From Betaproteobacteria bacterium (GTDB lineage: Bacteria; Pseudomonadota; Gammaproteobacteria; Burkholderiales; SG8-39), in contig JAOUFA010000001.1 in the NCBI GenBank assembly GCA_029858545.1, positions 1 through 39,439 on the forward strand: DNA of 39,439 bases, given 5' to 3'. The notes under the pieces were generated by a model. That model was not told where the DNA came from, searched no databases, and saw only the letters and a list, made by a program, of their open reading frames with translations. The translations under genes and the position numbers were made by a program. Shown in pieces: positions 4,786 through 37,180 of the stretch; position 1 is the first letter of the stretch; every line of letters starts with the position of its first letter.

Positions 4786-4949
4786 AACTTACCACTAGAC
4801 TCTGCCGCAATCGCTCTCCTCGGGCGCGCGTCGCGGAGCGAGATGGACATAATGCGCATTGCAGACCGCTCAGGGCGCGTTCCGGCGCGGGATTGTCGTG
4901 CGCAGGCAAGCTGTTCAGACTTTCGAGGCGCATTGATTTCCCTATCCGT
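4786..4949 (+). repeat. 164-bp structured interspersed element, full copy A
   Basis: AACTTACCACTAGACTCTGC...GATTTCCCTATCCGT. It differs from copy B at 8 positions, all within element nt 21-51, and is ~85% identical to copy C with no indels. Confidence 0.95.
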
Positions 4950-5082
4950 CGGCGGATGGCCTGCCAGGGCGGCGACAACGGCGTCGGCCGCCACCGTCGC
5001 GGCGAGCGGACGTGACCGGACTGCAGATCGGGCTCACGCCTGGTCCTCGCGAGCATGCGAATGTGGGCCTGCCCCTCTTCGC

Positions 5083-5470
5083 TCAGCGCTTGCCCAGGTA
5101 CAGTCGCGCCACGCGCTCGTCGTCGATCAGACGCGGTGCCTGGTCCTGGTGGATCTGGATTCGGCCCAGCTCCGTCATGCGTCCGCGGTACTCGCGACAG
5201 GAGACCATCGGGAAAACGAATGTTATGCCGGCTCCTTGGCCGCGGTATACCTTCGGGACGGTTGGCTCAGGAACGACATGGCGTGTTCGATGAGTCGAAA
5301 GGTCACCCGGTAGGCGCGCTGCGCAGGAATATCGCCTCCGGTAATCATGAGGAATTGAATTTCATCTCCCATGCAGGCCAGGTACGGTGGCCCAATAGCA
5401 GACCCCGTGTATGATCCATGCAAATGCCAGGGCAACAAGCGGCCCTGGTCCTTTCGCCGCTGTCCCGAGA
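5083..5470 (-). pseudogene. decayed HAAT/LivF-like ABC ATPase C-terminal remnant
   Basis: The minus frame ends ...GAGITFVFPMVSCREYRGRMTELGRIQIHQDQAPRLIDDERVARLYLGKR*, which fits the TILLVEQN...DRGYVLE.GRI....YLG pattern. Upstream, another frame reads FSGQRRKDQGRLLPW, a possible degenerate LSGGEQQ signature. Weak and fragmentary. Confidence 0.3.
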
Positions 5471-5581
5471 ATACCCACCGGGCGTCCGGGCCAAACAGCC
5501 CCAGTATTCCGATCATCGTCGCCTTGGCGTCAGGCCGTGTGACGCAACTGCAACCGTTCATCGAACGGGGGGGATAACAAC

Positions 5582-8500
5582 ATGGGACCGGCGTGGAAGA
5601 CAGGCAATTCTGTTCTTCTTCGCCATTGGCGCAGGATAGGCACAGGTCTGAGCAGGGCGCGCACGGCCGGAAGTAGCGCAGCGGAAAAATCTTTCGACGA
5701 AGAGCCGCCGCTGCGGGCGGAATTGTTCAGCACCGAGCAGATGGAGCAGCACGGCGCGCGTCTCGCCTCGGTCCACCGTTTAAAGCCTGGCCGTGTGCCG
5801 GACCAACTGCTGTCGCGGCTGGCCGCGAACGAGACTGCGCTGGTCGAAACCTGCGATCGGCTGACCGTAGCGATCGCGGAAACGCACCGCATCACGCCCG
5901 CCGGGGAATGGCTGCTCGACAACTTCTATCTCGTCGAGGAACAGATCCGCACGGCCCGGCGCCACCTCCCCAAGGGCTACAGCCGGGAACTGCCTGCCCT
6001 GGCCGAGGGCGCTTCGGCCGGACTGCCGCGCGTGTATGACCTTGCCCTTGAGACCATCGCCCATGGCGACGGACGGGTGGACCCGGACAGCCTAGGCCGT
6101 TTCATCACCGCGTACCAGACAATAACCCCCCTCAGGCTGGGCGAGTTGTGGGCCATTCCCATCATGCTGCGTCTGGCGCTGATCGAAAATCTGCGCCGCG
6201 TCGCAGTGCGCATCGCCGGCGGCAGGATGCATCTTGATCTGGCCGTCGAGTGGGCGAGCAAGCTGACAAGAATCGCCCGCGACGATCCGAAAAACATGAT
6301 CCTGGTGATCGCGGACATGGCGCGATCGAAACCGCCCATGACGACGCCATTCGTGTCGGAACTGGCGCGGCGCCTGCAGGGACACGGTCCCGCCCTGGCC
6401 TTGCCGTTGACCTGGATCGAGCAGCAACTGGCCGCATCGGGCTTGAGCATCGAGCAGCTGGTACGGTCGGGAAATCAGCAGCAGGCGGCCGATCAGGTTT
6501 CCATCAGCAACAGCATCGGCAGCCTGCGCTTGCTCGGAACCATGGACTGGCGCGAGTTCGTCGAGACCATGAGCGTGGTCGAACAGACCCTGCGCACAGA
6601 ACCGGGCGCGGCCTATGCCGCGATGAACTTCGCCAGCCGCGACCGCTACCGCCATGTCATCGAGCAAGTGGCGAAGGCCAGCGGACTTTCCGAAGCGGCG
6701 GTATCCAGCCACGCCATCGCGCTGGCGCGGGCGGGTGCGGCCCGGGGCGGACAGACCGACAGAATGGCGCATGTGGGCTATTACCTGATCGACCGGGGGC
6801 TGACCGAGCTGGAACGCGCGGCCCAGGCACGCCTTCCATTGGCGGCGATGCTGCGGCGCTGGGCAAGCCGGAACCCGTTGTTGGTCTATCTGGGCACCAT
6901 CACGCTGCTCACGCTGCTGCTGACCAGCGGCCTGTTGGCGGAGGCGCAGACGCAGGCCAGCGATGTGCTCACTCGGGGTGAGATCCATTGGGTGCTCGCA
7001 TTGACGGTCATACTCGCACTGCTGGCCTCCAGCCAACTCGCGGTCGCGCTGGTGAACTGGCTGGCCACATTGCTGACGTCGCCGCATTCGCTGCCGTGCA
7101 TGGACTACTCGGCGGGCATCCCGCCGGAATCACGCGCCCTGGTGGTGGTCCCGACCATGCTCACCAGCCCGCAGAACATCGACAGCCTGGTCGAGGCGCT
7201 GGAAGTGAGATTTCTCGCCAATCGCGACGACAACCTGCACTTCGGGCTGTTGACCGATTTTCGCGACGCTGCCGAGGAAACGCTGGCCGGGGATGCGCCG
7301 CTGCTGGATCTTGCGCGGCAGCGGATCGACGCCATGAATGCGCAGTACGCGCGCGGCGGCAAAGACATCTTCTTCCTGTTTCATCGCCCGCGCCGCTGGA
7401 ATCCCCACGACAAGATATGGATGGGTTACGAGCGCAAGCGCGGCAAGCTGGCGGACCTGAATGCGTTGCTGCGCGAAGGAAACGGTGAAGGCTTCTCCCT
7501 GGTGGTCGGCGCGACCGCGGCACTCGCCGGCGTGAAATACGTGATCACCCTGGACACGGATAGTCAATTGCCGCGCGATGCCGCGCGCCAATTCGTGGGC
7601 GCCATGGCGCACCCGCTGAACCGTCCGGTCTACGACGCGGCCCTGGGGCGGGTCAGCGCGGGCTACGGCATCTTGCAACCGCGGGTGAGCGTGAGCCTGT
7701 CCGGCGCAAGCCAGTCGCGCTATGCGCGCCTGCACGGCGGCGAGCCCGGCATTGACCCGTATACCCGCGCCGTCTCCGACGTCTACCAGGATGCGTTCCA
7801 GGAAGGTTCGTTCATCGGCAAGGGGATTTACGACCTCGATGCGTTCGAACAGTCGCTCAAGGGACGCTTTCCCGAAAACCGGATCCTCAGCCACGATCTT
7901 CTGGAAGGCTGCTACGCACGCGCCGGGTTGTTGAGCGACGTGCAGCTATACGAGGAGTACCCGGCCCGCTACCTCGCCGACGTCAACCGCCGCTACCGCT
8001 GGATCCGAGGCGACTGGCAACTTGCGGCCTGGGTGCTGCCGTGGGTGCCCGGTTCCGACGGGCGGCTGCGCAAGAACCCCCTCTCCGCGCTGTCGCGCTG
8101 GAAGCTGTTCGACAACCTGCGCCGCAGCCTGGTGCCAGCGGCGTTGACGCTGCTGTTGCTGCTGGGCTGGACGCTGTTTTCTTCATCCCTGCTCTGGACC
8201 CTGGCGGTGCTCGGCATCCTTTTGATCCCGCCGGTGCTGGCCACTTTGCCGGAGGTGTTGCGCAACCCCGGCGACATGCGTCCGGATCAGCATCTCGCTG
8301 CAGCAGTCCACGCCGCCGGCCAGCGCATCGTCCAGACCGGCTTTGCCCTGGCGACGCTGCCCCATGAGGCGTTCTACAGCCTGGATGCGATCTTGCGTAC
8401 CCTCGGGCGTTTGCTGGTCACGCACAAACGGCTGCTCGAATGGAATCCCTCCGGCGACCAGGAACGACTGAGCCGCAGGGACCTGGCCACCTCGTTCCGC

Positions 8501-11500
8501 GCCATGGGGTTCGCACCCACCCTCGCCGCCGGCACGGCCATTTATCTGGCTGCGTCCGATCCGCCCGCGCTGCCCGTGGCGGGCTCCATCCTGATTCTGT
8601 GGCTGGTGTCCCCCGCGATCGCCTGGTGGATCAGCCTGCCCCTCACCCGCCGCGCGGCTCGGTTGACGACCGAGCAGACCCGTTTTCTCGGCAGGATCGC
8701 GCGCAAGACCTGGGCCTTCTTCGACACCTACGTCGGTCCGGAAGATCATTGGCTGCCCCCGGACAATTGCCAGGAATACCACGACGTTCTCACGGTGGCG
8801 CATCGCACATCGCCCACAAACATGGGGCTGGCCCTGCTGGCGAATCTGACTGCCCACGACTTCGGTTATATCCCGGCCGGCGTGCTGGTCGAGCGCACGT
8901 CCCATACCCTGAAGACCATGGCGGAACTGGAACGGCATCGCGGCCATTTCTTCAACTGGTACGACACGCAATCGCTGCGACCGCTGCACCCCGTCTACAT
9001 CTCAACCGTGGACAGCGGCAACCTGGCGGGCCATCTCCTGACCCTGCGTCCGGGCCTGATCGAACTCATTGACCGCCCGATCCTGGAGACCCGCTGGTTG
9101 GACGGCCTGGGCGATACCGTGGGGATCCTGGAGGAGGCAGCGGGCAAGGCCGCACCGGCAACGCTGATCCAATTCCGGCAGGACCTCGAAACGGCATGCG
9201 CATCCCTGCCGACCACGCTCCCGGCGGCACAGATGCTGCTCGACCGGCTGGCGCGATCCGCCGAGGCGATCGGCGACGAACTGGGGAATGAGCCCGAAAG
9301 CCAGGCGGGCTGGTGGGCACAGGCGTTGGTCCGGCAATGCAATGCACACCGCGACGAGCTGACGTTTCTTGCGCCCTGGGCCAATCTGGCGCAAGTGCCC
9401 GAGGGCCTCGGCGATCTTCCCGACGTCGATGCGATCCCGACGCTGCGCGCCCTGGCGGAACTCGAAGTCGCCACGTCGAGCCGCCTCGCGAACCTGTCGG
9501 AGGCGGACGCGACGCCCGCGCGGGCGACGTGGCTGACCGAACTGCGCCGCCGCGTCGCGCAGGGCAGCGAGCACGCCCGGGCCCGCATCGCGGCCATCCA
9601 GAGTCTTGCGCTGCAGGTCGGCGAATTTGCGGACATGGAATATGGCTTCCTGTACGACAAAGCATCACGCCTGCTGAGCATAGGCTACAACCTGGACGCG
9701 CGGCGGCTGGACGCGAGTTACTACGATCTGCTGGCTTCGGAAGTGCGCTTGTGCGTGTTCGTCGCCATTGCCCAGGGAAAAATTCCCCAGGAGAGCTGGT
9801 TCGCGCTCGGCCGCTTGCTCACGCGCGCCGGCGGCGAACCGATCCTGCTGTCGTGGAGCGGCTCGATGTTCGAGTATCTGATGCCGCAACTTGTTATGCC
9901 GAGCTACGAGCACACCCTGCTCGACCAGACCGCCCGGGCGGCGGTGGCGCGGCAGATCGAGTACGGGCAGCAGCACGGCCTGCCATGGGGCATGTCGGAA
10001 TCCGGTTACGACACGGTGGACGTGCATCTCAATTACCAATATCGCGCCTTCGGCGTGCCCGGCCTGGGGCTGAAACGTGGGCTCGCCGAAGAGATGGTCG
10101 TCGCGCCCTACGCCTCGGCGCTGGCGTTGATGGTGGCGCCGGAGGCGGCCTGCCTGAACCTGCAACGGCTCGCCGCCGCTGGCGCGGAAGGGCAGTTCGG
10201 TTTTCATGAGGCCATCGACTACACCCCGGCACGACAACGACGCGGCGAATCCCATGCCCTGGTGCGCTCCTACATGGCCCATCACCAGGGCATGAGCCTG
10301 CTCGCCCTGGCCTGTCTGCTGCTGGGTCGTCCGATGCAGAAGCGCTTTGCCTCCGATCCGCTGTTCCAGGCCACCCTGCTGTTGCTGCAGGAGCGGATCC
10401 CCAAGGCCTCGGCGTTCTATGCCCACGCCGCCGAACTCACCGGCATCCAGGCAGGCGCGGGCAGCCCGCAGATGCCGATCCGCTTGCTCGACAGCCCCGA
10501 CACGCCGGTCCCGGAAGTGCAGTTGCTCTCGAACGGCCGCTATCACGTCATGGTGACCAACGCGGGCGGCGGCTACAGCCGCTGGAAGGACTTGGCTCTG
10601 ACGCGCTGGCGCGAGGACGGCACCCGTGATCATTGGGGCACGTTCTGCTACCTGCGCGACGTGGAAAGTGGCGCGTTCTGGTCCACCGCGCACCAGCCCA
10701 CCTTGCGCCGGGGGGCAAGCTACGAAGCGATCTTTTCGGAAGGGCGCGCGGAATTCCGCCGCCGCGATCGGGGTGACGATTTCGATTTCGACACCCACAC
10801 CGATATCGTCGTATCCCCGGAAGACGACATCGAACTGCGCCGGGTGCGCGTCACCAACCGTTCCACCGCGCGTCGGACGATCGAAGTCACCAGCTACGCG
10901 GAGGTGGTGCTGGCGGACCCCGCCGCCGACGCGCTGCATCCGGCGTTCAGCAATCTGTTCGTGCAGACCGAGATCGTTGCGGCGCGCCAAGCCATTCTCT
11001 GCACCCGCCGCCCACGCTCGCGCGACGAACAGACGCCCTGGATGTTTCATTTGATGGCCGTGCATGACGGGGACGTCGACGGGTTTTCCTATGAAACCGA
11101 CCGAGCACGCTTCATCGGCCGGGGACGCAGCCTCGCCGCGCCCCAGGCGATGGACACCGCCGCGGCGCTGTCCGGCAGCCAGGGCTCTGTACTGGACCCG
11201 GTAGCGGCTATCCGCTCTCGGATCACTCTCGCACCGGGACAGTCGGCCAACGTGGACCAGGTCTATGGCATCGGCGACAGCCGCGAAGCCGCTTTGAATC
11301 TCGTGGAGAAATATCAGGACCGGCGCCTTGCCGACCGTGTCTTCGAATTGGCCTGGACCCATGCCCAGGTGGTGCTGCGACAGATCAACGCGGGGGAAGT
11401 GGACGCGCAACTCTACGGACGCCTGGCCAATTCGATCCTCCACGCCAATACCTCGTTGCGCGCCGACAGCAGCGTGCTCACGAAAAATCGGCGCGGGCAA

Positions 11501-14386
11501 TCCGGCCTGTGGGGCTATGCCATTTCCGGTGACCTGCCCATCGTTTTACTGCGTATCGGTGACCTGACCAATATCGAGCTGGTGCGCCAGCTCATCCAGG
11601 CCCACGCCTATTGGCGCCTGAAGGGACTGGTGGTGGACATGGTGATCTGGAACGAGGACCGCGCCAGTTACCGGCAGGTGCTGCAGGACCAGATTCTGGG
11701 CCTGGTGGCGGTCGGTCTGGAAACCCAGGTGATGGACCGGCCGGGCGGCATCTTCATCCGCTCGGCAGAGCAGATTTCCGAGGAAGACCGCACGCTGTTC
11801 CAGACCGTCGCGCGCGTCATCCTTAGCGACAGCGCGGGAACACTGGCGGAACAGGTCAATCGCCTTGCCGCGGTGCAGGTGCGCGTGCCGCGACTCGTGG
11901 CGAGCCGGCCCAAGTTTCCCGAACTGCCCGCCGCCTTCGAACTGCCGCACCGCGATCTGATCCTGTCCAACGGGATCGGCGGGTTCACCCCGGACGGGCG
12001 CGAGTACGTCATCACCACCACGCCCGAACAGCCCACCCCGGCGCCGTGGGTGAATGTGCTGGCCAATCCCGACTTCGGCTGCGTCATCTCGGAGAGCGGC
12101 CAGGCCTATACCTGGGGCGAGAACGCCCACGAGTTCCGCCTCACGCCTTGGCACAACGACCCGGTATCCGACGCCGGCGGCGAGGCCTTTTACCTGCGCG
12201 ACGAGGAAAGCGGCCAATTCTGGTCACCCACGCCGCTGCCCAGGCGCGGCGCGACTCCCTACGTCAGCCGGCACGGCTTCGGCTACAGCGTGTTCGAACA
12301 TTGTGAGAACGGCATCCGATCCGAGCTGTGGGTCTATGTGGCCCAGGATGCGCCGATCAAGTTCTCCGTGCTCAAGGTGCGCAACACCTCGGGCCAGCCG
12401 CGCCGGCTTTCCGCCACGGGCTACGTCGAATGGGTGCTGGGCGACCTGCGGCCGAGATCCGTGATGCACGTGACCACCTCGGTTGCCATTGAGGTCGATC
12501 CCTACGTCGGAGCACTCTACGCGCGCAACCCCTACAACACCGAGTTTCCCGACCGGGTCGCGTTCTTCGATGTGGACGACGCGAACCGGAGCGTCACCTG
12601 CGACCGCGCCGAATTCATCGGCCGCAACGGCAGCCTGGAAAATCCGGCGGCGATGGCGCGCACCCACCTGTCCGGCAAGCTGGGCGGCGGTCTGGATCCC
12701 TGCGCCGCGATTCAGGTGGGCTTTGATCTTGCCGACGGGCAGGAACGCGAGATTACATTCAGGCTCGGCCTGGGAGGCATGCCGGGCGGCGGCGAAGTCG
12801 GTCACCTGGTGCATCGCTTCCGCGGCGCCGACGCCGCGCGGCGGGCATTGGAAGGCGTCTGGCAATATTGGAACCACACTCTCGGTGCGGTCCAGGTGAC
12901 GACGCCCGACACGTCACTCAATGTGCTGGCCAACGGCTGGCTGTTGTACCAGACCATGGCGTGCCGCCTGTGGGCTCGCAGCGGCTATTACCAGTCGGGC
13001 GGCGCGTTCGGCTTCCGCGACCAGTTGCAGGACGCGATGGCGCTGGTACACGCCGAGCCGGGGCTGCTGCGCGCCCAACTGCTCCTGTGCGCAGGCCGTC
13101 AGTTCCAGGAAGGCGATGTCCAGCATTGGTGGCATCCGCCCTCCGGCCGCGGTGTGCGCACCCATTGTTCCGACGACTATCTGTGGCTGGCCCTGGCCAC
13201 CTGCCGCTATGTGCAGTGCAGCGGCGACACCGGCGTGCTGGATGAATCCGTCGCGTTCCTGGAAGGCCGTCCCCTCAACCCGGACGACGATTCCTACTAT
13301 GACCTGCCCGGCTACTCCGAGGGCGTAGAGAGCCTCTACCAGCACTGCGTGCGGGCTATCCGGCACGGACTGCAATTCGGCGAACACGGCCTGCCGCTGA
13401 TCGGGTCGGGCGACTGGAACGACGGCATGAACCGGGTGGGTATTCAGGGCAAGGGAGAAAGCGTGTGGCTGGGCTTCTTCCTATACGACGTGTTGCGCCA
13501 GTTCGGCGATCTGGCGCGCCGCCAAAATGACGCCGCCTTCGCCGAATTCTGCGCAGTGGAAGGCAAGCGCCTGCGCGCGAACATCGAGCAGCACGGCTGG
13601 GATGGCGCCTGGTATCGCCGCGCGTGGTTCGACGACGGCACCCCCCTCGGCTCCGCGGGCAACAGCGAATGTCAAATCGATTCGATCTCGCAAAGCTGGG
13701 CGGTGCTCTCCGAGGCGGGCGACAGCGAACGCGCGCATATGGCCATGCAGGCCGTCGACGCCCGGCTGGTGCGCCGCGACCACGCCCTCATCCAGTTGCT
13801 CGATCCCCCCTTCGACAAGTCCAACCTGGACCCGGGCTACATCAAGGGCTATGTGCCGGGTGTACGCGAGAACGGCGGTCAGTACACCCACGGCGCCATC
13901 TGGGCGGCTATGGCCTTCGCCGCCCTAGGCGACAGCCGCCGTGCCTGGGAACTCACCACCATGATCAACCCGGCCAACCATGCAAAATCACCCGAGGCCA
14001 TCGCGGCTTACAAGGTGGAACCCTATGTCATGGCGGCCGACGTCTACGCCGTGACGCCCCACATCGGCCGCGGCGGCTGGACCTGGTACACCGGCTCGGC
14101 TGGCTGGATGTACCGGCTCATCGTCGAATCGCTGCTGGGTTTGCGGCTGGAGGCGGACCGGCTGCACGTTACTCCTTGCCTGCCGACACATTGGACCGAA
14201 GTGACAATCCACTATCGCTACCGGGAAACGGTCTATCACATCGCCGTTTCGCAAATCCGGGCGGGCGGCGATGGGAAAACTGGCGTAATGCGTATCAGCG
14301 TCGATGGTGTCGAATTGCATGACCAGGCGATTCCGCTTTGCGACGACCAACGGGAACACTCGGTCGCAGTGACGGTGCACGTGTAG
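5582..14386 (+). CDS. ndvB: cyclic beta-1,2-glucan synthase-like protein (NdvB/ChvB/Cgs type: GT84 glycosyltransferase, cyclization/glucoamylase-like domain, GH94 phosphorylase)
   Basis: 2934 aa. TM clusters flank a GT domain (ALVVVPTMLTSPQNID...LDTDSQLPRDAA...GYGILQPRV). The middle domain contains RTSPTNMGLALLANLTAHDFGY...FFNWYDT...STVDSGNL and SWSGSMFEYLMP...GMSESGY. There are two GH94 N-domains (LLSNGRYHVMVTNAGGGYS; LSNGIGGFTPDGREYVI) and a GH94 catalytic core (GFRDQLQD...VQHWWHP...GSGDWNDGMN). The first ~40 aa may be an over-extension. Confidence 0.85.
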   Translation: MGPAWKTGNSVLLRHWRRIGTGLSRARTAGSSAAEKSFDEEPPLRAELFSTEQMEQHGARLASVHRLKPGRVPDQLLSRLAANETALVETCDRLTVAIAETHRITPAGEWLLDNFYLVEEQIRTARRHLPKGYSRELPALAEGASAGLPRVYDLALETIAHGDGRVDPDSLGRFITAYQTITPLRLGELWAIPIMLRLALIENLRRVAVRIAGGRMHLDLAVEWASKLTRIARDDPKNMILVIADMARSKPPMTTPFVSELARRLQGHGPALALPLTWIEQQLAASGLSIEQLVRSGNQQQAADQVSISNSIGSLRLLGTMDWREFVETMSVVEQTLRTEPGAAYAAMNFASRDRYRHVIEQVAKASGLSEAAVSSHAIALARAGAARGGQTDRMAHVGYYLIDRGLTELERAAQARLPLAAMLRRWASRNPLLVYLGTITLLTLLLTSGLLAEAQTQASDVLTRGEIHWVLALTVILALLASSQLAVALVNWLATLLTSPHSLPCMDYSAGIPPESRALVVVPTMLTSPQNIDSLVEALEVRFLANRDDNLHFGLLTDFRDAAEETLAGDAPLLDLARQRIDAMNAQYARGGKDIFFLFHRPRRWNPHDKIWMGYERKRGKLADLNALLREGNGEGFSLVVGATAALAGVKYVITLDTDSQLPRDAARQFVGAMAHPLNRPVYDAALGRVSAGYGILQPRVSVSLSGASQSRYARLHGGEPGIDPYTRAVSDVYQDAFQEGSFIGKGIYDLDAFEQSLKGRFPENRILSHDLLEGCYARAGLLSDVQLYEEYPARYLADVNRRYRWIRGDWQLAAWVLPWVPGSDGRLRKNPLSALSRWKLFDNLRRSLVPAALTLLLLLGWTLFSSSLLWTLAVLGILLIPPVLATLPEVLRNPGDMRPDQHLAAAVHAAGQRIVQTGFALATLPHEAFYSLDAILRTLGRLLVTHKRLLEWNPSGDQERLSRRDLATSFRAMGFAPTLAAGTAIYLAASDPPALPVAGSILILWLVSPAIAWWISLPLTRRAARLTTEQTRFLGRIARKTWAFFDTYVGPEDHWLPPDNCQEYHDVLTVAHRTSPTNMGLALLANLTAHDFGYIPAGVLVERTSHTLKTMAELERHRGHFFNWYDTQSLRPLHPVYISTVDSGNLAGHLLTLRPGLIELIDRPILETRWLDGLGDTVGILEEAAGKAAPATLIQFRQDLETACASLPTTLPAAQMLLDRLARSAEAIGDELGNEPESQAGWWAQALVRQCNAHRDELTFLAPWANLAQVPEGLGDLPDVDAIPTLRALAELEVATSSRLANLSEADATPARATWLTELRRRVAQGSEHARARIAAIQSLALQVGEFADMEYGFLYDKASRLLSIGYNLDARRLDASYYDLLASEVRLCVFVAIAQGKIPQESWFALGRLLTRAGGEPILLSWSGSMFEYLMPQLVMPSYEHTLLDQTARAAVARQIEYGQQHGLPWGMSESGYDTVDVHLNYQYRAFGVPGLGLKRGLAEEMVVAPYASALALMVAPEAACLNLQRLAAAGAEGQFGFHEAIDYTPARQRRGESHALVRSYMAHHQGMSLLALACLLLGRPMQKRFASDPLFQATLLLLQERIPKASAFYAHAAELTGIQAGAGSPQMPIRLLDSPDTPVPEVQLLSNGRYHVMVTNAGGGYSRWKDLALTRWREDGTRDHWGTFCYLRDVESGAFWSTAHQPTLRRGASYEAIFSEGRAEFRRRDRGDDFDFDTHTDIVVSPEDDIELRRVRVTNRSTARRTIEVTSYAEVVLADPAADALHPAFSNLFVQTEIVAARQAILCTRRPRSRDEQTPWMFHLMAVHDGDVDGFSYETDRARFIGRGRSLAAPQAMDTAAALSGSQGSVLDPVAAIRSRITLAPGQSANVDQVYGIGDSREAALNLVEKYQDRRLADRVFELAWTHAQVVLRQINAGEVDAQLYGRLANSILHANTSLRADSSVLTKNRRGQSGLWGYAISGDLPIVLLRIGDLTNIELVRQLIQAHAYWRLKGLVVDMVIWNEDRASYRQVLQDQILGLVAVGLETQVMDRPGGIFIRSAEQISEEDRTLFQTVARVILSDSAGTLAEQVNRLAAVQVRVPRLVASRPKFPELPAAFELPHRDLILSNGIGGFTPDGREYVITTTPEQPTPAPWVNVLANPDFGCVISESGQAYTWGENAHEFRLTPWHNDPVSDAGGEAFYLRDEESGQFWSPTPLPRRGATPYVSRHGFGYSVFEHCENGIRSELWVYVAQDAPIKFSVLKVRNTSGQPRRLSATGYVEWVLGDLRPRSVMHVTTSVAIEVDPYVGALYARNPYNTEFPDRVAFFDVDDANRSVTCDRAEFIGRNGSLENPAAMARTHLSGKLGGGLDPCAAIQVGFDLADGQEREITFRLGLGGMPGGGEVGHLVHRFRGADAARRALEGVWQYWNHTLGAVQVTTPDTSLNVLANGWLLYQTMACRLWARSGYYQSGGAFGFRDQLQDAMALVHAEPGLLRAQLLLCAGRQFQEGDVQHWWHPPSGRGVRTHCSDDYLWLALATCRYVQCSGDTGVLDESVAFLEGRPLNPDDDSYYDLPGYSEGVESLYQHCVRAIRHGLQFGEHGLPLIGSGDWNDGMNRVGIQGKGESVWLGFFLYDVLRQFGDLARRQNDAAFAEFCAVEGKRLRANIEQHGWDGAWYRRAWFDDGTPLGSAGNSECQIDSISQSWAVLSEAGDSERAHMAMQAVDARLVRRDHALIQLLDPPFDKSNLDPGYIKGYVPGVRENGGQYTHGAIWAAMAFAALGDSRRAWELTTMINPANHAKSPEAIAAYKVEPYVMAADVYAVTPHIGRGGWTWYTGSAGWMYRLIVESLLGLRLEADRLHVTPCLPTHWTEVTIHYRYRETVYHIAVSQIRAGGDGKTGVMRISVDGVELHDQAIPLCDDQREHSVAVTVHV

Positions 14387-14396
14387 AACCCGTGTC

Positions 14397-14560
14397 AACT
14401 TACCACTAGACTCTGCTCCAATCGCCTTCTTCGGGCGGGTGTCGCGAAGCGAGATGGACATAATGCGCATTGCAGACCGCTCAGGGCGCGTTCCGGCGCG
14501 GGATTGTCGTGCGCAGGCAAGCTGTTCAGACTTTCGAGGCGCATTGATTTCCCTATCCGT
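14397..14560 (+). repeat. 164-bp structured interspersed element, full copy B
   Basis: Starts 10 nt after the ndvB-like stop codon (TAG 14384-14386). It is identical to copy A over element nt 52-164. Confidence 0.95.
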
Positions 14561-14984
14561 GTCCGATACGGTTCAGACCTTGCGTTACCTGCCGCCGACG
14601 ACCATACGCGTCGTTGCCGATCAACAGGGCCGTGACCATGCAAGTCTGTTGCCACATGAATTGATCGGCCAGGGACTGGAAGCTGTGCCGCCCGAGACAG
14701 CGGCGCACATTGTGCGCAGCGAGGAAGCTACCCTCCGCACATTGGTTGCGGTTGCCGAAGAGCTGGCCGCGACGCAGGCCAGTACGATACTGAAAGGGGC
14801 ACACACCCAGACACGCGACAACCTGTCGACGGAAATTAACCGGCTCAAGGCCTTGCGCCGGGTAAACCCGAACATCCGGGAAGACGAAATCGAACACCTC
14901 GAATCACATTGGCAAATACTGAGCCGGGTACTCGATACCGCCAAACCCCGGCCGGATGCAATCCGGGTGATTGTGGACACCTGA
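14561..14984 (+). pseudogene. rapA: RNA polymerase-associated SNF2 ATPase RapA/HepA, C-terminal ~140 aa fragment
   Basis: ...LRYLPPTTIRVVADQQGRD...STEINRLKALRRVNPNIREDEIEHLESHWQILSRVLDTAKPRPDAIRVIVDT* matches the extreme C-terminus of RapA (E. coli ...RLEALRAVNPNIRDDEL...RLDALRLIV). Homology begins immediately at the right edge of repeat B, and there is no 5' part of the gene. Confidence 0.8.
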
Positions 14985-15025
14985 TCCGTATCGCGTACGC
15001 TCACTGGTGAACGAAAGGCCGGACA

Positions 15026-15049
15026 CCCGGGAATCTCCAGCGTCCCGGG
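15026..15049. terminator. 7-bp GC hairpin between convergent rapA fragment and methyltransferase gene (weak terminator candidate)
   Basis: CCCGGGA-N10-TCCCGGG. There is no clear U-tract on either strand. Confidence 0.2.
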
Positions 15050-15061
15050 CGCCGCATGAGA

Positions 15062-15895
15062 TTAGGCGGGTTTTCGCGCGATCATTTCCACCGGAGCCAG
15101 CAATCCGGCGCTGACGTTTTCGACCAGGTTCTTTATCTTGGCAGGTGTGGTTGCCTGCATCAGCGTGTGCAAACCCAGCGGCGGCGGGCCACCATTTGCC
15201 TCTGTTTTCGCTTTCATCTGCTTGAAAAATTCAAGCCCGAATTCCCTCCGGTTCGTCTCCGCCGTAATCACAAAGCCTGCTGCGCCAAGAGCTTGCCTGT
15301 ACTGGTCCGGTGTCGCCAGGCTGCTGGTCATTCTATCCGTCGCCCAGGTTGCGGGATAATTCGCCTCACCGTCGCCGATCTGCATAATATCGTAAGCCCC
15401 GAACACCGCTCCCGGTCGAAGCACACGGTATACCTCGGCAAACAATTTCTTTTTATCCGCAATATTCATTCCAACATGCAACATAATCGCTCCGTCAAAT
15501 GACTCATCCTCGAACGGCATTGACAGTGCGCTCCCCTGTTCCAGTGTGACCTGCCTTTCCAGTCCGACCCAGGAACAAAGCGCATTACCGGTATCGATAT
15601 ATTCCTGTGTCAAATCGATACCGGTTACCCGTGCGTTGGTCTTTTTTGCCGTATACCGCGCTGCACCACCAAGCCCGCATCCGACATCCAGCACGTGATC
15701 CTTGTCTGTAAATTTCATTTGCTGCAGCAGGTGATCGGTTGCCAGGCGTCCGCCAATATGAAATTCGTCGACCGGTCCGAGGTCCTCCACGGTTATCGAG
15801 TCCACGGTTTTTCCCAGCTTGGGAATCGCCACCTGGATCGCGCCCAACAAATCCCCGTGGGTGTAGTGTTTCGATATCGCGTTTTCAATAGACAT
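15062..15895 (-). CDS. class I SAM-dependent methyltransferase
   Basis: 277 aa. SAM-binding motif I VLDVGCGLGGAARYTA, followed by VTGIDLT and LRPGAVFGAYD. GAGGAG Shine-Dalgarno upstream. Confidence 0.85.
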   Translation of the reverse strand: MSIENAISKHYTHGDLLGAIQVAIPKLGKTVDSITVEDLGPVDEFHIGGRLATDHLLQQMKFTDKDHVLDVGCGLGGAARYTAKKTNARVTGIDLTQEYIDTGNALCSWVGLERQVTLEQGSALSMPFEDESFDGAIMLHVGMNIADKKKLFAEVYRVLRPGAVFGAYDIMQIGDGEANYPATWATDRMTSSLATPDQYRQALGAAGFVITAETNRREFGLEFFKQMKAKTEANGGPPPLGLHTLMQATTPAKIKNLVENVSAGLLAPVEMIARKPA

Positions 15896-15992
15896 AATCA
15901 GATCTCCTCTCGTTATAGGCGGTTTGTGAAATTCGCCGATGCGTCACCGGCTGCAATAGAATTTCTTTGATCCGACAATTTACTCATCAGCA

Positions 15993-16823
15993 TCAGCTCG
16001 ACCTGATCATTTCCGGCATCGAATCCGGGTATCGCATTACCGCTTCATCAAGCAGGAACAGCTTGTCGGGAGGAACCTGTGGCCAGGCATGATGGGAGGT
16101 GTGTCGGAAGAATCCGTCGCTGACCCGCTTGCCATTTGTCATCCTCAACAAGATCTTTACAAACCCCGGTATCTTTTTGTCCAGCCCAAAGCGGTAGGTC
16201 TGCGTGTGTGAAAACCAGGAGAAACTCAGCCACGCAATCGCGCTCATTAATCGCACGGCCAGCACTACCCCCAGGTACTTCTCCCAGCCGAAACTCAGGA
16301 CGAACAGGACCAGTAGCGGCAGGTAGATGGCCAGGCGGATCCAGCGACTGGTCGTGATATTCCTGTTGCGGATATCGATCACGAGCTGCGCTTCCTCGAA
16401 GAACGTGCAATAAAACAGCGAACGCCAGAATCCACCGGACTCGTAGATGGAATGCGGATCCTTTAGCATATCTCCGCCCGGTACCTTGCCCGGCATGTGT
16501 TCCAGGTGATGCGTAAAGTGTTTCTTCCGGATGGAATCGATGGGCTCGGCCCACGGAACCGCAACAACTGCAAAATGCTCAGCCATGAGCTCAATCGCCC
16601 GCGGCCACCGTCGCAGCTGGTCGGTATGCATGCGATCGTGGGCGCCCATAAAGAACCGCATGTAGAGGAGATGAAATAGCAGGTAGAAAACGGGCCAGCT
16701 CAGGTAGTCCAGCGCGTAGGCAAATATGACTACGTACGTCATCGCGGTCATAAGGGTCACTTCTACGTCCAGAGCTCTCTTGGACTCTGCCGGTATATTG
16801 AATTCCTCGTCACCGATTTTCAT
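15993..16823 (-). CDS. membrane fatty-acid desaturase-family protein (three His boxes)
   Basis: 276 aa, hydrophobic. His boxes HDRMH, HFTHHLEH and HTSHHAWPQ, spaced as in the di-iron membrane desaturase/hydroxylase family. Confidence 0.75.
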   Translation of the reverse strand: MKIGDEEFNIPAESKRALDVEVTLMTAMTYVVIFAYALDYLSWPVFYLLFHLLYMRFFMGAHDRMHTDQLRRWPRAIELMAEHFAVVAVPWAEPIDSIRKKHFTHHLEHMPGKVPGGDMLKDPHSIYESGGFWRSLFYCTFFEEAQLVIDIRNRNITTSRWIRLAIYLPLLVLFVLSFGWEKYLGVVLAVRLMSAIAWLSFSWFSHTQTYRFGLDKKIPGFVKILLRMTNGKRVSDGFFRHTSHHAWPQVPPDKLFLLDEAVMRYPDSMPEMIRSS

Positions 16824-16886
16824 ATCAACTTTCCCTGCGATTCGCCATCTCTAGTCGTATTAATCCCTATGCATCGAGTGCATCCG

Positions 16887-17081
16887 TCAGACCGGACTGA
16901 TCAGGCTCTGGCCGCCAATGCCCCAGTTGTTCTCGCTTACCTCCTCGATTAGCACCCAGGTGATGCCCCGCATGGCCTCGCCCTCAATGGACACCATGGC
17001 ATCGGTCACCTTCTGGATCATTTCCCGCTTCTGTTCATCGGTGAAAACATTTTTGATCACGCTGATGGTCACCAGTGGCAT
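16887..17081 (-). CDS. 4-oxalocrotonate tautomerase-family protein
   Basis: 64 aa beginning MPLVTISV, which gives the catalytic Pro1 after Met removal. Tautomerase-like length and beta-alpha-beta pattern ([21 protein letters not shown]). Confidence 0.85.
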
Positions 17082-17242
17082 GCACTCCCTCCTGTTGCGA
17101 TTTACGGGCTTTTCCAGTTATTTCATGCATCCTAAATCCATCAATCTCCGGATACCTGAAGTCGGCCAGGAGGTTTTATGGAGATTTTGTGGAGATAGTT
17201 TGCTAATTTGATATCTGGGGTATTTCCAGGGGGAGACTTTCG

Positions 17243-18778
17243 GTGCGGCTGATTTTCGGGGAATACGTGCTCGATACAGAGCTATTCGAACTGCGTCACA
17301 ACGGTGAGCGGTCCCCGCTTGAGCCGCAGGTATTCAACCTGCTGCTGTACCTGGCCCGCAACAGGGATCGTATCGTCAGCCGCCAGGAGCTGCTCGACAA
17401 ACTATGGGCTGGAAAGATAGTTACCGAATCGACCTTGAGCAGCCGCATCAAGGCCGCGCGGCAGGCAGTCGGTGACAGCGGGCACAACCAGAACTGCATC
17501 GCCACGTTCAATCGCCGTGGATACCGTTTTGTAGCCGAAATCGTCGAAGAACGGGAGCAGACAGGTAAGGAGTCAATTGACGTCTTTCCGAAGATGCCTG
17601 CTCCGCATCGGGATCAGCCCTCGCTGGCCGTTCTGCCCTTTGCACATAACCCGGGTGACGAAAAGATAGCGTGGATTGCCGAGATGCTGGGCGAAGACAT
17701 CAGTATCCAGCTGGCCCGAATCCCGGGGTTCCTGGTGATTTCGCGTAATTCCACCGCGTACTATCGCGGCCGCGAATTCACCATAGACCAGATCGGTCGC
17801 GAACTGGAAACCGATTACGTTATCGAGGGTTCGGTCTGGAATACCGGCGACAAGCTGCGTGTATCAGTACAGTTGCTGGAAACCTCCAGCGGCCGGTTTC
17901 TGTGGGCCAACCGCACGGAGTTACCGGCCAACAAACTCGGGGATTACCAGGATGACGTGGTGCGCGAAATCGTTGGTCAAATCGAGCCGGAACTGAACCG
18001 CGCCGAACTGCTTAGTTTGCGTCAACACAGACCGGTTGATCTCGGCGCGTGGTCACTCTATCGCCAGGGCCATGCGCTGCTCGGGATCAAAGGCTGGAGC
18101 GAAGAGACCTTTGCCGAAGCAGCGGACCTGTTACGCCAGGCAATTGCCCGCGATTCAGAACTGGCGTTTGCACATGCTTACCTGGCGCTGCTACTAGCCA
18201 TCGGGCATTTGATCGGCCTGGTCACGGACGATGCCAGTCGCGAGGAAGCGGTCGTCGCAGCGGAAACCGCTTTGGCACTCGATGGCCAGGACCCGGATAT
18301 TCTTGGCTACGTAGGCTGTGCGTTTGCCGACATGGGCGAGTTCCAGCGCGGCATCGGTATGATGCGACGCGCGGTTGAACTGGACCCGAGCAATGCGCAG
18401 GCGCATGCGGCACTTGGTTCCGCGCTACTGCACATAGGCGAGTTAGAGGGCATCGAAGAAATGCGCTACGGCATTCGCATCAGTCCCCGTGACAACCGTC
18501 TCGCTGCCTGGGGCGCCATGCTGGCACGCGGTCTATTAAGTCTCGGCAAGGTTGACGAGTCGATTGAGGCAGCGGAACACGCGTGCCGCTGTGACGACAA
18601 GATCTTCCTGCCACGCGTGGTACTGGCGGTGGCACAAAACACCGCGGGCAACCTGCAGGCCGCCCGCGCCGCGCTCGACGATGCACGCCGCATCCGGCCG
18701 CAACTGTCGTTGAATGACATTGCACGTTTTGCCAGCCCGGAGGAAATCTCAAGCCTTTCGCAAGCCGGCCTGGTCTAG
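17243..18778 (+). CDS. transcriptional regulator with an OmpR/CadC-type winged-helix DNA-binding domain and C-terminal TPR repeats
   Basis: 511 aa with a GTG start and GGGGGAGA Shine-Dalgarno. The N-terminus FELRHNGERSPLEPQVFNLLLYLARNRDRIVSRQELLDKLWAGKIVTESTLSSRIKAARQAVGD is a trans_reg_C-type domain. The C-terminal half has TPR-like repeats (AHAYLALLLA, DPSNAQAHAALGSALL). Divergent from the tautomerase operon. Confidence 0.8.
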   Translation: MRLIFGEYVLDTELFELRHNGERSPLEPQVFNLLLYLARNRDRIVSRQELLDKLWAGKIVTESTLSSRIKAARQAVGDSGHNQNCIATFNRRGYRFVAEIVEEREQTGKESIDVFPKMPAPHRDQPSLAVLPFAHNPGDEKIAWIAEMLGEDISIQLARIPGFLVISRNSTAYYRGREFTIDQIGRELETDYVIEGSVWNTGDKLRVSVQLLETSSGRFLWANRTELPANKLGDYQDDVVREIVGQIEPELNRAELLSLRQHRPVDLGAWSLYRQGHALLGIKGWSEETFAEAADLLRQAIARDSELAFAHAYLALLLAIGHLIGLVTDDASREEAVVAAETALALDGQDPDILGYVGCAFADMGEFQRGIGMMRRAVELDPSNAQAHAALGSALLHIGELEGIEEMRYGIRISPRDNRLAAWGAMLARGLLSLGKVDESIEAAEHACRCDDKIFLPRVVLAVAQNTAGNLQAARAALDDARRIRPQLSLNDIARFASPEEISSLSQAGLV

Positions 18779-18797
18779 TTTTTTACAGCACTGACAT

Positions 18798-19081
18798 TCA
18801 ATTTCTGTCCTGAAAAATCATCTCAGCGCCCTTCTCCGCAATCATCGTGGTCGGCGCATTGGTGTTACCAGAGATGATGGTCGGCATCACCGATGCATCG
18901 ATCGCCCGCAATTCCTGGATACCGTGCACGCGCAATTTCGCATCGACCACCGCCAGCGCATCAACACCCATTTTTCAGGTGCCCACCGGGTGAAAAATCG
19001 TAGCGCCGAGATCACCTGCGGCAATCAACAACTGTTCATTCGATTGAGCCACGAGCCCGGGTCGGAACTCCTCCGGACGAT
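18798..19081 (-). pseudogene. GMC-family (choline dehydrogenase-like) oxidoreductase, C-terminal ~93 codons with an in-frame TGA
   Basis: YRPEEFRPGLV...[67 protein letters not shown]. The TGA at 18975-18977 replaces the Cys of the conserved GTCKMG motif. The 5' ~450 codons are cut off at the left edge of repeat C. Confidence 0.8.
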
Positions 19082-19245
19082 AACTTACCACTAGACTCTG
19101 CTCCAATCGCCCTCTTCGGACGCGTGTCGCGGAGCGAGATTGACTTAATGTGCAATGTAGACCGTTCAGGGCGCGCTCCAGCACGGGATTGTCGTGCGCA
19201 GGCAAGCAGTTCAAACTTCGGGGTCGGATTGATTGGCCTATCTCT
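19082..19245 (+). repeat. 164-bp structured interspersed element, full copy C (second subfamily)
   Basis: Collinear with A and B without indels. It differs from B at 24 of 164 positions and shares subfamily-specific bases with partial copy D. Confidence 0.95.
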
Positions 19246-19417
19246 TAACAGACCCGACAAGCGTGCTCTGGCCGAGCATCATCTCGGACACTGCCAGAGC
19301 TGTTTTTCGCGCGCTGAAATGGAACGCCTGCTGTCCGAACGGATCAAGGAGTCGGACGCACAGAAAGCCCCCGATCAGCTCAAGGCGCGTCTCCGCGCCC
19401 TTTTGAAGGATTCATAG
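19246..19417 (+). pseudogene. zf-HC2 (ZAS-type) anti-sigma factor, N-terminally truncated fragment
   Basis: ...RALAEHHLGHCQSCFSRAEMERLLSERIKESDAQKAPDQLKARLRALLKDS* contains the H-x3-C-x2-C motif of small ZAS anti-sigma factors. The first ~25-30 aa and the start codon are missing. Homology begins at the right edge of repeat C. Confidence 0.55.
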
Positions 19418-19651
19418 GTACGGCCGGCGTCGAGCATTTGGCGTACCTCGCGCATGAGATGCCACTTGAGCGCGGGCTACTAGAACCGAGCGCTCGCGCG
19501 TGCCACGCTTGACTTGGCGCGCGTCGCGACCGCTTTTTTCACCCCGCACATCGCCCTCAAGTGCTAGAGTGCGCGCCCCATATGCTCGTGACCGCTGCCG
19601 CGACTCGCGCTGGACGATAATCCGCGCAGGCTTCACACGAACGCAACCCGA

Positions 19652-21488: not shown

Positions 21489-21491
21489 GCA

Positions 21492-21521
21492 TTGACAAAA
21501 GGTGCCGAAGATCCGTAGATT
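21492..21521 (+). promoter_or_regulatory. candidate sigma70 promoter for the SBP/liv operon
   Basis: TTGACA (21492-21497), an 18-nt spacer, then TAGATT (21516-21521). It lies 65 nt upstream of the GTG start at 21586 and begins 4 nt after the transposase-fragment stop. Confidence 0.4.
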
Positions 21522-21585
21522 CGCTCCCGGTTTCGGTGACATGCGCGAATCTTCGCGCTGCACACACCACAGAGGAGGAACCACA

Positions 21586-22785: not shown

Positions 22786-22816
22786 TCAGGCCTCAATCCG
22801 GTTTGCGCGTCAACCA

Positions 22817-22855
22817 CCCCGGTGCCTGGGTCAGGCACCGGGGTATGTTTTTTTT
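22817..22855 (+). terminator. intrinsic terminator/attenuator between the SBP gene and the permease genes
   Basis: 10-bp perfect GC-rich stem CCCCGGTGCC-N7-GGCACCGGGG, followed by TATGTTTTTTTT. It ends 6 nt before the livH-type ATG at 22862. Confidence 0.7.
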
Positions 22856-22861
22856 CATGCC

Positions 22862-31112: not shown

Positions 31113-31625
31113 TCACGCTGGAGAAGTGTCGAGTGCCATCGGCATTCCGAGGCAGACAGATTTCACCCGGTCCCGCATCTGCGGCGAGTCGGCCGGATGG
31201 CGATAGGCCCGAAACACTTCATTCGAGGAATCGCCGGCGCGAACGGGAGCCATAAACGGATCGACATATTCCCACACGATCTCGCCGGCAGGCGTGATTT
31301 CAAAAAGCCGCCCCCATTGCCCTTCGCAGATGAGTGTATTGCCGCCGGGCAGGCGCTGCGCGCCGCTGATGTGCGGGCTGAAAAATGTATGGGCGAGCCT
31401 GGCACGATTCTCCCATACGATCTTGTGCGTGCGCGGATCGAGTTCGACAACACGGGAGAATGGATTATTCGGCGTGTTGATGCCATTGGCGAACAGCGTG
31501 ATGTTCCCGTTCGGGAGGGGTGCGCAGTCGTGCTGCATTCCGAAGCTGTCGTCGCGGTGCGCCCACTCTAGTTTCCGGGTGCTCTTGTCGATCAGCCCGA
31601 TCGTATTGAGACGGCGAAAGCTGAA
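31113..31625 (-). pseudogene. arylsulfotransferase (ASST)-like beta-propeller protein, C-terminal ~170 aa fragment
   Basis: The open frame reads FSFRRLNTIGLIDKSTRKLEWAHRDDSFGMQHDCAPLPNGNITLFANG...SRVVELDPRTHKIVWE...GEIVWEY..., fitting the HHD..LPNGN..FDNG / ..IVWEY pattern of ASST-family proteins. An upstream stop lies at 31626-31628 and there is no N-terminal half. Confidence 0.5.
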
Positions 31626-31676
31626 TCAGGCCTGCGAGCGCTCGCGTCACATGCGCTTTGTCGAGCTGGCTGTTTC

Positions 31677-31772
31677 GCGCAATGTAGACCGTTCAGGGCG
31701 CGTTCCAGCACGGGATAGTCGCGCGCAGGCAAGCTGTTCAAACTTCGGGGTCGGATTGATTTGCCTATAGTC
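31677..31772 (+). repeat. interspersed element, right-end partial copy D (element nt ~69-164)
   Basis: GCGCAATGTAGACCGTTCAGGGCGCGTTCCAGCACGGGATAGTCGCGCGCAGGCAAGCTGTTCAAACTTCGGGGTCGGATTGATTTGCCTATAG is collinear with copy C. The left boundary is fuzzy, and similarity fades upstream of 31677. Confidence 0.85.
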
Positions 31773-36460: not shown

Positions 36461-36620
36461 TGATGTGTTTGACCGCAAGTTTGAGTCTCCCGGCCCGTCA
36501 TCGTGACACAAAAAGGCCGATCTGGACCGCAGCCCTTGTCCCCCGTTCGTGGGACAGACCCGCTGCGGGCCGCTCGTTAGGATTTCCTGTATCGAAGAAT
36601 GACTAACAGGACGAGCCCCC

Positions 36621-36971
36621 ATGAGACATTACAACCGTTTTGTATTCACGCTCGGCGCCACCGCCGCGCTGTTGTTTTGCACCGCCACCGCCACCGCCAC
36701 CGCGTCTAGCCCATCGTATGAACAAGGCCTGGAAGCGGCCCGCGAATACCGCTATTCGCTGGCACTCACGCATTTCACCGTCGCGGCGGAGCACGGGGAT
36801 CAGGATGCGCAACGCAGCCTGGGATTGATGCTCCTGCATGGGGAACGGCTCTATGGGCGCGAGGTGCGCCGTGACGAAGAACAGGCGAAGCGTTGGCTGC
36901 GGGCGGCTGCGGCCCAGGGCTGCGCAATCTCGTCCCACATTCTCAAGAAACTCGCAAAACACGCCAATTGA
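36621..36971 (+). CDS. small secreted Sel1-like repeat (SLR/TPR-family) protein
   Basis: 116 aa. Signal peptide MRHYNRFVFTLGATAALLFCTATATATA. SLR-like text AAEHGDQDAQRSLGLMLLHGE...EEQAKRWLRAAAAQGC. Divergent from the response regulator. Confidence 0.65.
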   Translation: MRHYNRFVFTLGATAALLFCTATATATASSPSYEQGLEAAREYRYSLALTHFTVAAEHGDQDAQRSLGLMLLHGERLYGREVRRDEEQAKRWLRAAAAQGCAISSHILKKLAKHAN

Positions 36972-37130
36972 CCCGGTTCTTGCTGCGCCCCGGCAGGATG
37001 GAATCTACTGACCCCAGCCGGGTGAAGACTGATTCCACCCTCAGGTGCGCGAGGGGAATCCTTCATCCCCCCGGCCCTAGTCGGCACAAACAGGAGATCG
37101 GCAAATCCTTCCGGGCGTGAAGTCTGAAGG

Positions 37131-37180
37131 GCGCAGGCAAGCTGTTCATGCTTCGGTGCTGGAATGATTGGCCTATCGCT
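37131..37180 (+). repeat. interspersed element, right-end partial copy E (element nt ~115-164)
   Basis: GCGCAGGCAAGCTGTTCATGCTTCGGTGCTGGAATGATTGGCCTATCGCT is collinear without indels with nt 115-164 of copies A-D. It ends 1 nt before the cupredoxin gene stop codon on the opposite strand. Confidence 0.75.

Follow-up and report, generated by a model that had tools for sequence, protein, structure and literature searches.

A dispersed 164-nt repeat at the junctions of a mosaic proteobacterial region: a candidate non-autonomous mobile element with unlike ends

Introduction

The best-known bacterial process that treats the two ends of a mobile element differently is rolling-circle transposition by the HUH Y2 transposases of the IS91/ISCR family, which start at oriIS and finish imprecisely at terIS (PMC13181058). 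For IS91 transposition, 89 bp of terIS and 82 bp of oriIS are enough, cleavage at terIS is imprecise, and the target that abuts oriIS is 5'-[C/G]T(T/C)(G/C) (PMC13181058). In Pseudomonas syringae, right-end fragments of IS801, 229-679 nt long, are mobilised in trans, with a left border that is defined by a tetranucleotide only; the genomic fragments serve mainly as recombination sites (PMC3189936). Relaxases are likewise known to recombine two copies of oriT (PMC4902927). Here we describe a 164-nt repeat, referred to below as the element, in a stretch of 39,439 nt from a betaproteobacterium (contig JAOUFA010000001.1 of assembly GCA_029858545.1, positions 1 to 39,439; hereafter the window), and compare it with these systems.

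Small non-autonomous elements that have neither inverted repeats nor target duplications are hard to detect and have seldom been described in bacteria. The present one lies at most junctions of a mosaic region, and two co-existing haplotypes show it in a 14-kb deletion or replacement. Most likely it is a small mobile element, parasitic in nature, through which DNA is deleted and reshuffled. Should a rolling-circle or HUH protein mobilise it, it would represent a miniature of that class which occurs in high copy and has a recurrent left end of its own, and it would offer a natural system in which to study how elements of this sort pick up adjacent genes and shuffle them. If it is merely a passive repeat, the region would exemplify ordinary repeat-mediated genome erosion in an uncultured lineage.

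The Repeat and Its Two Ends

Repeat finding and alignment place the element at five sites of the window, all on the + strand: three full 164-nt copies (A, B, and C) and two right-end fragments (D and E; Table 1). These are the sites given by an earlier reading made from the letters of the window without database searches (the sequence-only reading), and its counts for A against B (8 differences in 164 positions) and B against C (24 in 164), without indels, were exact. A and C differ at 26 of 164 positions. An nhmmer profile made from nine full copies, when run on the window, returns the five sites only, with E-values from 1e-56 to 4e-8, the next match being at E 0.34; the match is far beyond chance. 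Since D is closer to C (10 differences in 96 positions) than to A/B (18 in 96), as is E (8 in 50 vs. 13 in 50), C, D, and E constitute a second subfamily, to which only C and D had been assigned earlier. Seven more full-length copies lie outside the window, making ten in all.

The ends of the element are asymmetric. The right end is exact and in the same register in all 12 copies, full or partial, that bear one (...TGATTNNCCTATCNNT). It consists of ...TGATTNNCCTATC followed by three bases that depend on the subfamily (CGT or TCT). The right edge drawn earlier, GATTKKCCTAT(C), stops short, the true end being 3-4 nt further, at CCTATCNNT. The left end is ragged. The sharp left edge read earlier, AACTTACC, does hold for A, B, and C, and the end is complete (AACTTACCACTAGACTCTG...) in six full copies, but the other four of the ten (L016, L012b, L030, and L012a) start 1-9 nt further in.

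The element has no terminal inverted repeats, the left end AACTTACCAC and the reverse complement of the right end ACGGATAGGG being dissimilar. Nor is there a target-site duplication: matches between the own flanks of each copy are no better than those of mismatched controls. A conserved flanking target is also missing, the left flanks ending in TTC, GTC, GAT, AGC, and CAC. At B, the 7-nt sequence CCGTGTC is found both directly to the left (14387-14396) and across the right end (14554-14563). No other copy has such a repeat, and it is probably a coincidence or a microhomology used when the junction formed.

A Possible End-Asymmetric Mode of Mobility

The exact right end, the ragged left end, the right-end fragments, and the lack of inverted repeats and of duplications together call for an end-asymmetric process. 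The reading that we prefer, with a probability of roughly 40%, is that of a non-autonomous repeat moved by an end-asymmetric, probably HUH/rolling-circle enzyme, which after its arrival serves as portable homology. An enzyme encoded at some other place would disperse the element in trans, handling its two ends differently. The reaction would likely be a single-strand, rolling-circle one, carried out by a HUH nuclease, either one like those of IS91/ISCR or one that resembles a relaxase, with a start at the conserved right end and an imprecise stop at the left. Early stops would yield right-end fragments such as D and E, and read-through could carry along adjoining DNA. Co-oriented copies would then provide portable homology, through which recombination could delete or swap the DNA between them, the outcome being single copies that sit between truncated genes and blocks of different origin. 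Mobility, which we infer from the dispersal of the element to unrelated loci, and recombination are both well supported; the enzyme class is only a lead.

Several hallmarks of the IS91/ISCR family are found here. Terminal inverted repeats and target-site duplications are lacking, the presumed termination end is imprecise, and there are one-ended products that keep the presumed origin end (D, E, and L012e, another partial copy). The IS801 right-end fragments resemble the element in being short and non-autonomous, with an exact origin end, no inverted repeats or duplication, and a loose left border; they are mobilised in trans, as is presumed for the element, adjoin rearranged DNA, and act mainly as recombination sites (PMC3189936). 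However, they plainly derive from a known insertion sequence of 1.5 kb that the same genome contains, whereas no parent element or Y2 transposase is known for the element. The two sequences are unrelated but for a weak terminal motif, and the 164-nt form is distinguished by a recurrent left end of its own and by a high local density. ISCR1, ISCR2/ISVsa3, and ISCR27 also have a single functional origin end, lie at junctions of mosaic regions, and capture adjacent unrelated DNA; unlike the element, they carry a transposase gene of about 1.5 kb, located upstream of oriIS.

The terminus itself, CCTATCC(GT), resembles the oriIS ends of ISCRs, ...CTTCCTATAC(CC), both as published (PMC13023784, PMC8894482) and in real elements that were retrieved; the pattern in common is GGCG..TTGA....CCTAT.C. 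The boundary of homology is in the same register as the RP4 nick, which follows CCTATCCTG (PMC3772185). Compared with the oriIS terminus (...ACTTCCTATAC(C)), the element ends score 12-17 of 20-28 nt, which is not distinctive for subfamily 2. The best case is that of the subfamily-1 ends A and B, which match the ISCR2 oriIS terminus at 17 of 28 positions and are tied in the top 5 of 78,836 window positions.

A number of observations weigh against the preferred reading. The resemblance to oriIS is weak: vs. ISCR1 and ISCR H42, the ends of A, B, and D rank only 170-1208, the subfamily-2 ends C and E rank above 2000 vs. all three of ISCR2, ISCR1, and ISCR H42, and the ISCR27 20-mer is matched equally well by the element ends and by about 140 of the 78,836 window positions. 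A [G/C]T dinucleotide follows CCTATC(N) in 11 of 11 copies, but it is invariably GT in subfamily 1 and CT in subfamily 2; because of this perfect co-variation, it is probably element sequence rather than a target of the IS91 type. Two copies, L012d and L034, keep the left or middle part without the right end. The strand bias is not statistically secure: a single strand in five of five window copies has p ~0.06 when taken alone, and although two of two copies agree on another contig, contig L012 has three full copies on the + strand and two partial ones on the - strand. Head-to-tail junction remnants are at background level, and neither an empty site nor a fresh simple insertion was seen. Finally, there is no transposase, integrase, relaxase, or other recombinase in the window or in related contigs, in keeping with the earlier remark that no autonomous partner is adjacent.

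It should be noted that within the giant glucan-synthase-like gene, at 13461-13488, the sequence CTTCTTCCTATACG nearly equals the ISCR2 oriIS terminus. This is a chance match, and it shows how weak arguments from the terminus alone are.

Recombination between Copies

Contigs of the ENA assembly provide a natural comparison. One of them (L060) is 100% identical to window positions 1-14664. Another (L003) is 99.7% identical to positions 14396-25895 and then diverges leftwards, where it has a hybrid copy of the element, 24 nt, and a 96.5%-identical version of window positions 1-340, truncating the open reading frame at 7-498. Up to and including its middle part the hybrid copy resembles C (left, 100%; middle, 98%), and its right part is of the R1 type as in B (95%). 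Because this copy marks the junction at which the segment 341-14396 is missing, it is direct evidence of recombination between copies, and it marks a 14-kb deletion or replacement in the sister haplotype. Crossover between two co-oriented copies is the simplest account of L003. The two haplotypes, L003 and the window-like L060, occur in the same ENA sample. The copies are mosaic in general: either right-end type (R1 or R2) is freely joined to various types of left and middle part, with exchange points in columns 49-60 and 102-133 of the profile. The hybrid and mosaic copies thus bear out the earlier description of the element as a recombinogenic unit.

Window positions 1-340 exist in two versions (100 and 96.5% identical) within one ENA sample. 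In both ENA contigs the sequence stops 23 nt upstream of the window start, a sign that a further repeat or branch point may lie immediately outside.

Mosaic copies and a hybrid at the deletion would also suit a passive intergenic repeat of the ERIC/REP kind that lacks dedicated transposition and may serve the host, for instance as a structured transcript or as a site to which a protein binds; its junctions would have arisen only by homologous recombination and gene conversion in a pseudogene-rich region. The want of a transposase in the window and related contigs favors this explanation, as do a gene fragment with no copy beside it (TctC, see below), the conserved core and the + strand hairpin, and the density of the element, with five copies in the 9.6 kb of L012. 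Homologous processes, however, fail to explain a base-exact right end at more than 10 unrelated loci, including loci 9-10 nt after stop codons and beside truncated genes. The element also folds no better than shuffled sequence, carries no promoter or terminator signal, and belongs to no Rfam family. We consider the passive repeat rather unlikely. As to the repeats after which this explanation is modelled, ERIC, REP/BIME, and REPIN are likewise non-coding, dispersed, high-copy, lineage-specific, and substrates of recombination, but they are palindromic and fold strongly, whereas the element has unlike ends.

Could the junctions be assembly artefacts, unrelated contigs having been joined through the shared repeat? 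The window is known from metagenome assemblies only, its ends coincide with contig ends elsewhere, and the Logan contigs break inside A, inside B, and 29 nt before C. The breaks are, however, what is expected of a real repeat. L060 spans A and B without a mismatch, and L003, which represents the other haplotype, spans C and the right junction of B. Moreover, A, B, and C differ at 8-26 positions and are resolvable at k = 141. An artefact is hardly credible.

Modules between Copies and the Permuted Unit of L012

The block between B and C (4.5 kb) has a GC content of 0.56, the other blocks having 0.65-0.71, and the shifts fall at B and at C. Because of these shifts, at least this module is foreign DNA that is bracketed by two copies. 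The modules differ in origin. The earlier proposal that the whole region was assembled module by module around the element is plausible, but the outcome is indistinguishable from that of insertion followed by deletion between copies. The related claim, that copies mark every synteny break, was overstated: the broken end of the TctC fragment has no element copy by the profile. It follows that the region holds gene debris that is independent of the element.

On contig L012, positions 4988-6313 of the minus strand hold a 1,324-nt unit between '...RRIPGAEL' and 'VIVENKAGARHL...'. It consists, in order, of element columns ~101-164, an open reading frame of 368 aa with a signal peptide, and element columns 1-~143. 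The ends of the unit thus overlap, with about 40 columns present in each of them, and a variant core, CATTGCGGCGCGCC(G/A)GCC, is common to both. When the flanks are joined, a weak match to the C-terminal part of alpha/beta-hydrolases extends over the junction (E ~0.2), whereas the unjoined flanks give none. The unit thus appears to have been inserted cleanly into a fragment of an alpha/beta-hydrolase gene. It looks like a rolling-circle multimer, a circle that became integrated, or a piece, exceeding one unit in length, that was cut from an array of the form element-cargo-element.

On a different explanation, the element would be a site for site-specific recombination at the borders of cassettes, comparable either to attC or to directly repeated oriT sites that a relaxase recombines. 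Modules would excise as circles with one site and re-enter at another site or a pseudo-site, with crossover in the core or at the right end. This would agree with co-oriented sites at module borders, with the foreign B-C module between two of them, and with the L012 order of right part, open reading frame, and left part, with its shared variant core and apparently clean position in the hydrolase fragment. The left and right halves of the element assort independently, two of three exchange points falling in the core interval (102-133), and the recombination of two oriT copies by relaxases provides a precedent (PMC4902927). But the third exchange point (columns 49-60) is outside the core, and the core interval is the longest identical stretch, where homologous crossovers are expected in any case. 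The ~40-nt overlap in L012 is not predicted by a simple crossover, and the continuity of the hydrolase has an E-value of only ~0.2. No integrase, relaxase, or intI gene is nearby, attC-type inverted core sites are lacking, and the modules, in contrast to integron cassettes, are 4.5-12 kb long and comprise many genes, on either strand, as well as gene fragments. On balance, this explanation is unlikely.

A more specific version assumes a chromosomal cassette system that runs on a HUH nuclease or relaxase, with the element as its cis site: modules between co-oriented sites would leave as single-stranded circles with one site and re-insert by another site or pseudo-site, thereby building multi-gene arrays. 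This version, which we regard as distinctly improbable, fits the permuted unit of L012, the position of the foreign B-C module between a pair of sites, and the fact that left and right halves assort independently. If true, it would be a functional analogue of integrons with rolling-circle chemistry and cassettes of several kb.

Comparison with the systems that inspired these proposals gives a mixed result. The attC arrays (such as the Vibrio VCRs) are similarly co-oriented, species-specific repeats of 60-140 nt that lie between unrelated modules and are mosaic by recombination, but they come with intI, inverse-core and core sites, and a symmetric hairpin, whereas the element modules are large and multi-gene, with gene fragments. 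By eye, the element has no inverse core RYYYAAC or core GTTRRRY (GTTCAGA has C for R), and an integron attC was rejected on this ground, on the lack of intI, and on module size. The oriT x oriT recombination by relaxases (R388 TrwC, R1162 MobA, and R64 NikB; PMC4902927) is similar in that direct repeats can delete the DNA between them, and the element has a nick-like CCTATCC in the RP4 register. A MOBP oriT was nevertheless rejected: the termini are ATCCGT, ATCTCT, ATCGCT, and ATCCTT vs. the core ATCCTG (consensus in PMC3772185), with no inverted repeat within ~10 nt, and no relaxase is known here.

Internal Structure and Other Candidate Classes

Within the element, a core is nearly invariant (Table 1), and an 18-nt part of it, GCGCAGGCAAGCTGTTCA, is retained even in E and in the ~70%-identical relative L034. 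A central imperfect hairpin lies upstream of the GGCAAGCTGTTCA end of the core and overlaps its first 17 nt. Its pairing is preserved in 87.6% of cells; three of the pairs are compensatory, and several are of the G.U/G.T kind. Through the latter, the hairpin is specific to the + strand; the minus strand folds worse. The conservation of the hairpin is modest evidence, because the sequences compared are closely related. Folding of the whole element is no better than that of shuffled sequence (z +1.1 and +1.8), and a consensus scan found neither a promoter nor a terminator inside it. The element is non-coding, with a third-position GC (GC3) of 0.51-0.65 in all six frames in a genome of 65% GC.

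The strand-specific hairpin bears on one further explanation, that of a miniature derivative of IS200/IS605 (PATE), moved as single-stranded DNA by a Y1 TnpA, with its orientation set by the direction of replication. The lack of inverted repeats and of a target duplication and the co-orientation within contigs also agree with it. However, the left flank has no conserved target of 4-5 nt, and the ragged left end contrasts with the exact ends of IS200/IS605. Neither tnpA nor tnpB was seen, and the GC skew of the window changes sign, which gives no replichore assignment. A PATE is thus very unlikely. The sequence-only reading had pointed to enzymes of IS91/ISCR, IS200/IS605, or IS110 as possible partners; the target expected for the second is absent, and the likeness to oriIS that would speak for the first is only suggestive.

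Other classes were set aside as well. A classical DDE-derived miniature inverted-repeat transposable element would have terminal inverted repeats and a target duplication of fixed length, and the element has neither. REP, REPIN, and BIME elements do not fit folding at the shuffle level, with a single imperfect central hairpin of 52 nt; this, with the unlike termini, upholds the earlier view of a discrete unit rather than a REP-like palindrome. A fragment of a coding gene is ruled out by GC3 and by the B-C comparison, in which the 24 nucleotide changes, most of them non-synonymous, go with ~12 amino-acid changes. The template and variable repeats of a diversity-generating retroelement were rejected since the B-C differences are by eye not adenine-specific, 13 of 24 being transitions. 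A dif/Xer site was rejected, also by eye, as the XerC arm is matched at only 8 of 11 positions and there is no XerD arm.

Distribution

The window organism is present in two samples, as represented by the ENA assembly (contigs L003, L060, and L061) and the Logan assembly; the samples of this study are ENA ERZ27296335, SRA SRR7132115, and JGI Ga0224495. A scan of JGI metagenomes gave 51 loci, of which 47 are chance 23-mers in gut contigs. The four real loci are on three contigs of one sample, Ga0224495. Of these contigs, L012 (9.6 kb) has three full and two partial copies, and a 35-kb contig has two co-oriented copies (L016 and L030). The third contig (67% GC) has the ~70%-identical relative L034 at 2577-2707, just downstream of a CusR/CusS copper-sensing pair. 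The proximity of L034 to cusRS and of E to a cupredoxin-copB-copA cluster makes a link to copper-resistance islands possible. Inverted right-end fragments beside E and beside the L016 copy proved to be noise.

Searches elsewhere were negative. Rfam gave no match at the gathering threshold across the window, and a permissive scan of copy B had sX8 as the best match (13.6 bits vs. a threshold of 50, E = 3). The element was not matched in the PLSDB plasmids, IMG/VR had nothing real with three different element blocks, and 185,579 species-representative genomes (GTDB) yielded two chance matches to a 20-nt part of the core only. Translations of open reading frames across the element had no match among 5.8 billion protein clusters. 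The family is previously undescribed and has so far been seen only in a single uncultured proteobacterial lineage of high GC content and in a few contigs that co-occur with it.

Neighboring Genes and Minor Features

Genes next to the copies were identified with Pfam profiles, and the neighbors listed earlier stand: a DctM remnant to the left of A, the giant gene and rapA on the two sides of B, GMC oxidoreductase and anti-sigma remnants on those of C, an ASST remnant to the left of D, and the cop cluster next to E (Table 1). E adjoins the stop codon (37181-37183) of an intact minus-strand cupredoxin gene at the start of the copA-copB cluster. In all five truncated genes beside window copies, it is the 3' part that remains, and each gene is directed away from the element (minus on the left, plus on the right). 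If orientations were random, this would have p ~0.03; one case on L012 breaks the pattern.

Table 1. Positions of the element copies, their internal features, and adjacent gene fragments and modules in the window.
Feature	Position	Strand	Remarks
Copy A	4786..4949	+	Full length, right-end type R1 (...TTTCGAGGCGCATTGATTTCCCTATCCGT)
Copy B	14397..14560	+	Full length, type R1; begins 10 nt past the stop of the 2934-aa glucan-synthase-like gene
Copy C	19082..19245	+	Full length, right-end type R2 (...TTCGGGGTCGGATTGATTGGCCTATCTCT)
Copy D	31677..31772	+	Partial, last 96 nt (profile columns 69-164); C-like; terminates in CCTATAGTC
Copy E	~37125..37180	+	Partial, last 50-56 nt (profile columns ~109-164)
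Near-invariant core, 30 nt	14499..14528 (in copy B)	+	CGGGATTGTCGTGCGCAGGCAAGCTGTTCA
Central imperfect hairpin, 52 nt	14464..14515 (in copy B)	+	TGCGCA...TGCGCA
TctC (Bug-family) fragment	3808..4215	-	Profile 21-104 of 274; adjoins DctM fragment
DctM fragment	4226..4654	-	C-terminal piece; profile 306-383 of 413; 5'-truncated end faces left end of A
rapA 3' fragment	14559..14984	+	RapA_C profile 222-359 of 360; 5'-truncated at right edge of B
GMC oxidoreductase C-terminal fragment, 57 aa (GMC_oxred_C)	18798..18971	-	Left of C
Zinc anti-sigma remnant (…AEHHLGHCQSC…)	19246..19417	+	HLGHCQSC motif kept; N-terminus cut at right end of C
Arylsulfotransferase (ASST) C-terminal fragment	31113..31538	-	Left of D
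Low-GC module bounded by B and C	14561..19081		rapA', methyltransferase, desaturase-like gene, tautomerase, TPR regulator, GMC'
Segment in window and L060, missing from sister haplotype L003	341..14396		

Two other repeats of the window are of a different nature. The 2934-aa gene has a 52-nt internal direct repeat (10649-10700 and 12191-12242, 79% identity), which fits duplicated GH94 domains. At 39150-39371, four tandem repeats of 51-60 nt encode the Met/His-rich stretch MDHGAHAMHG... of a minus-strand multicopper oxidase of the CopA type, which is ordinary for such proteins.

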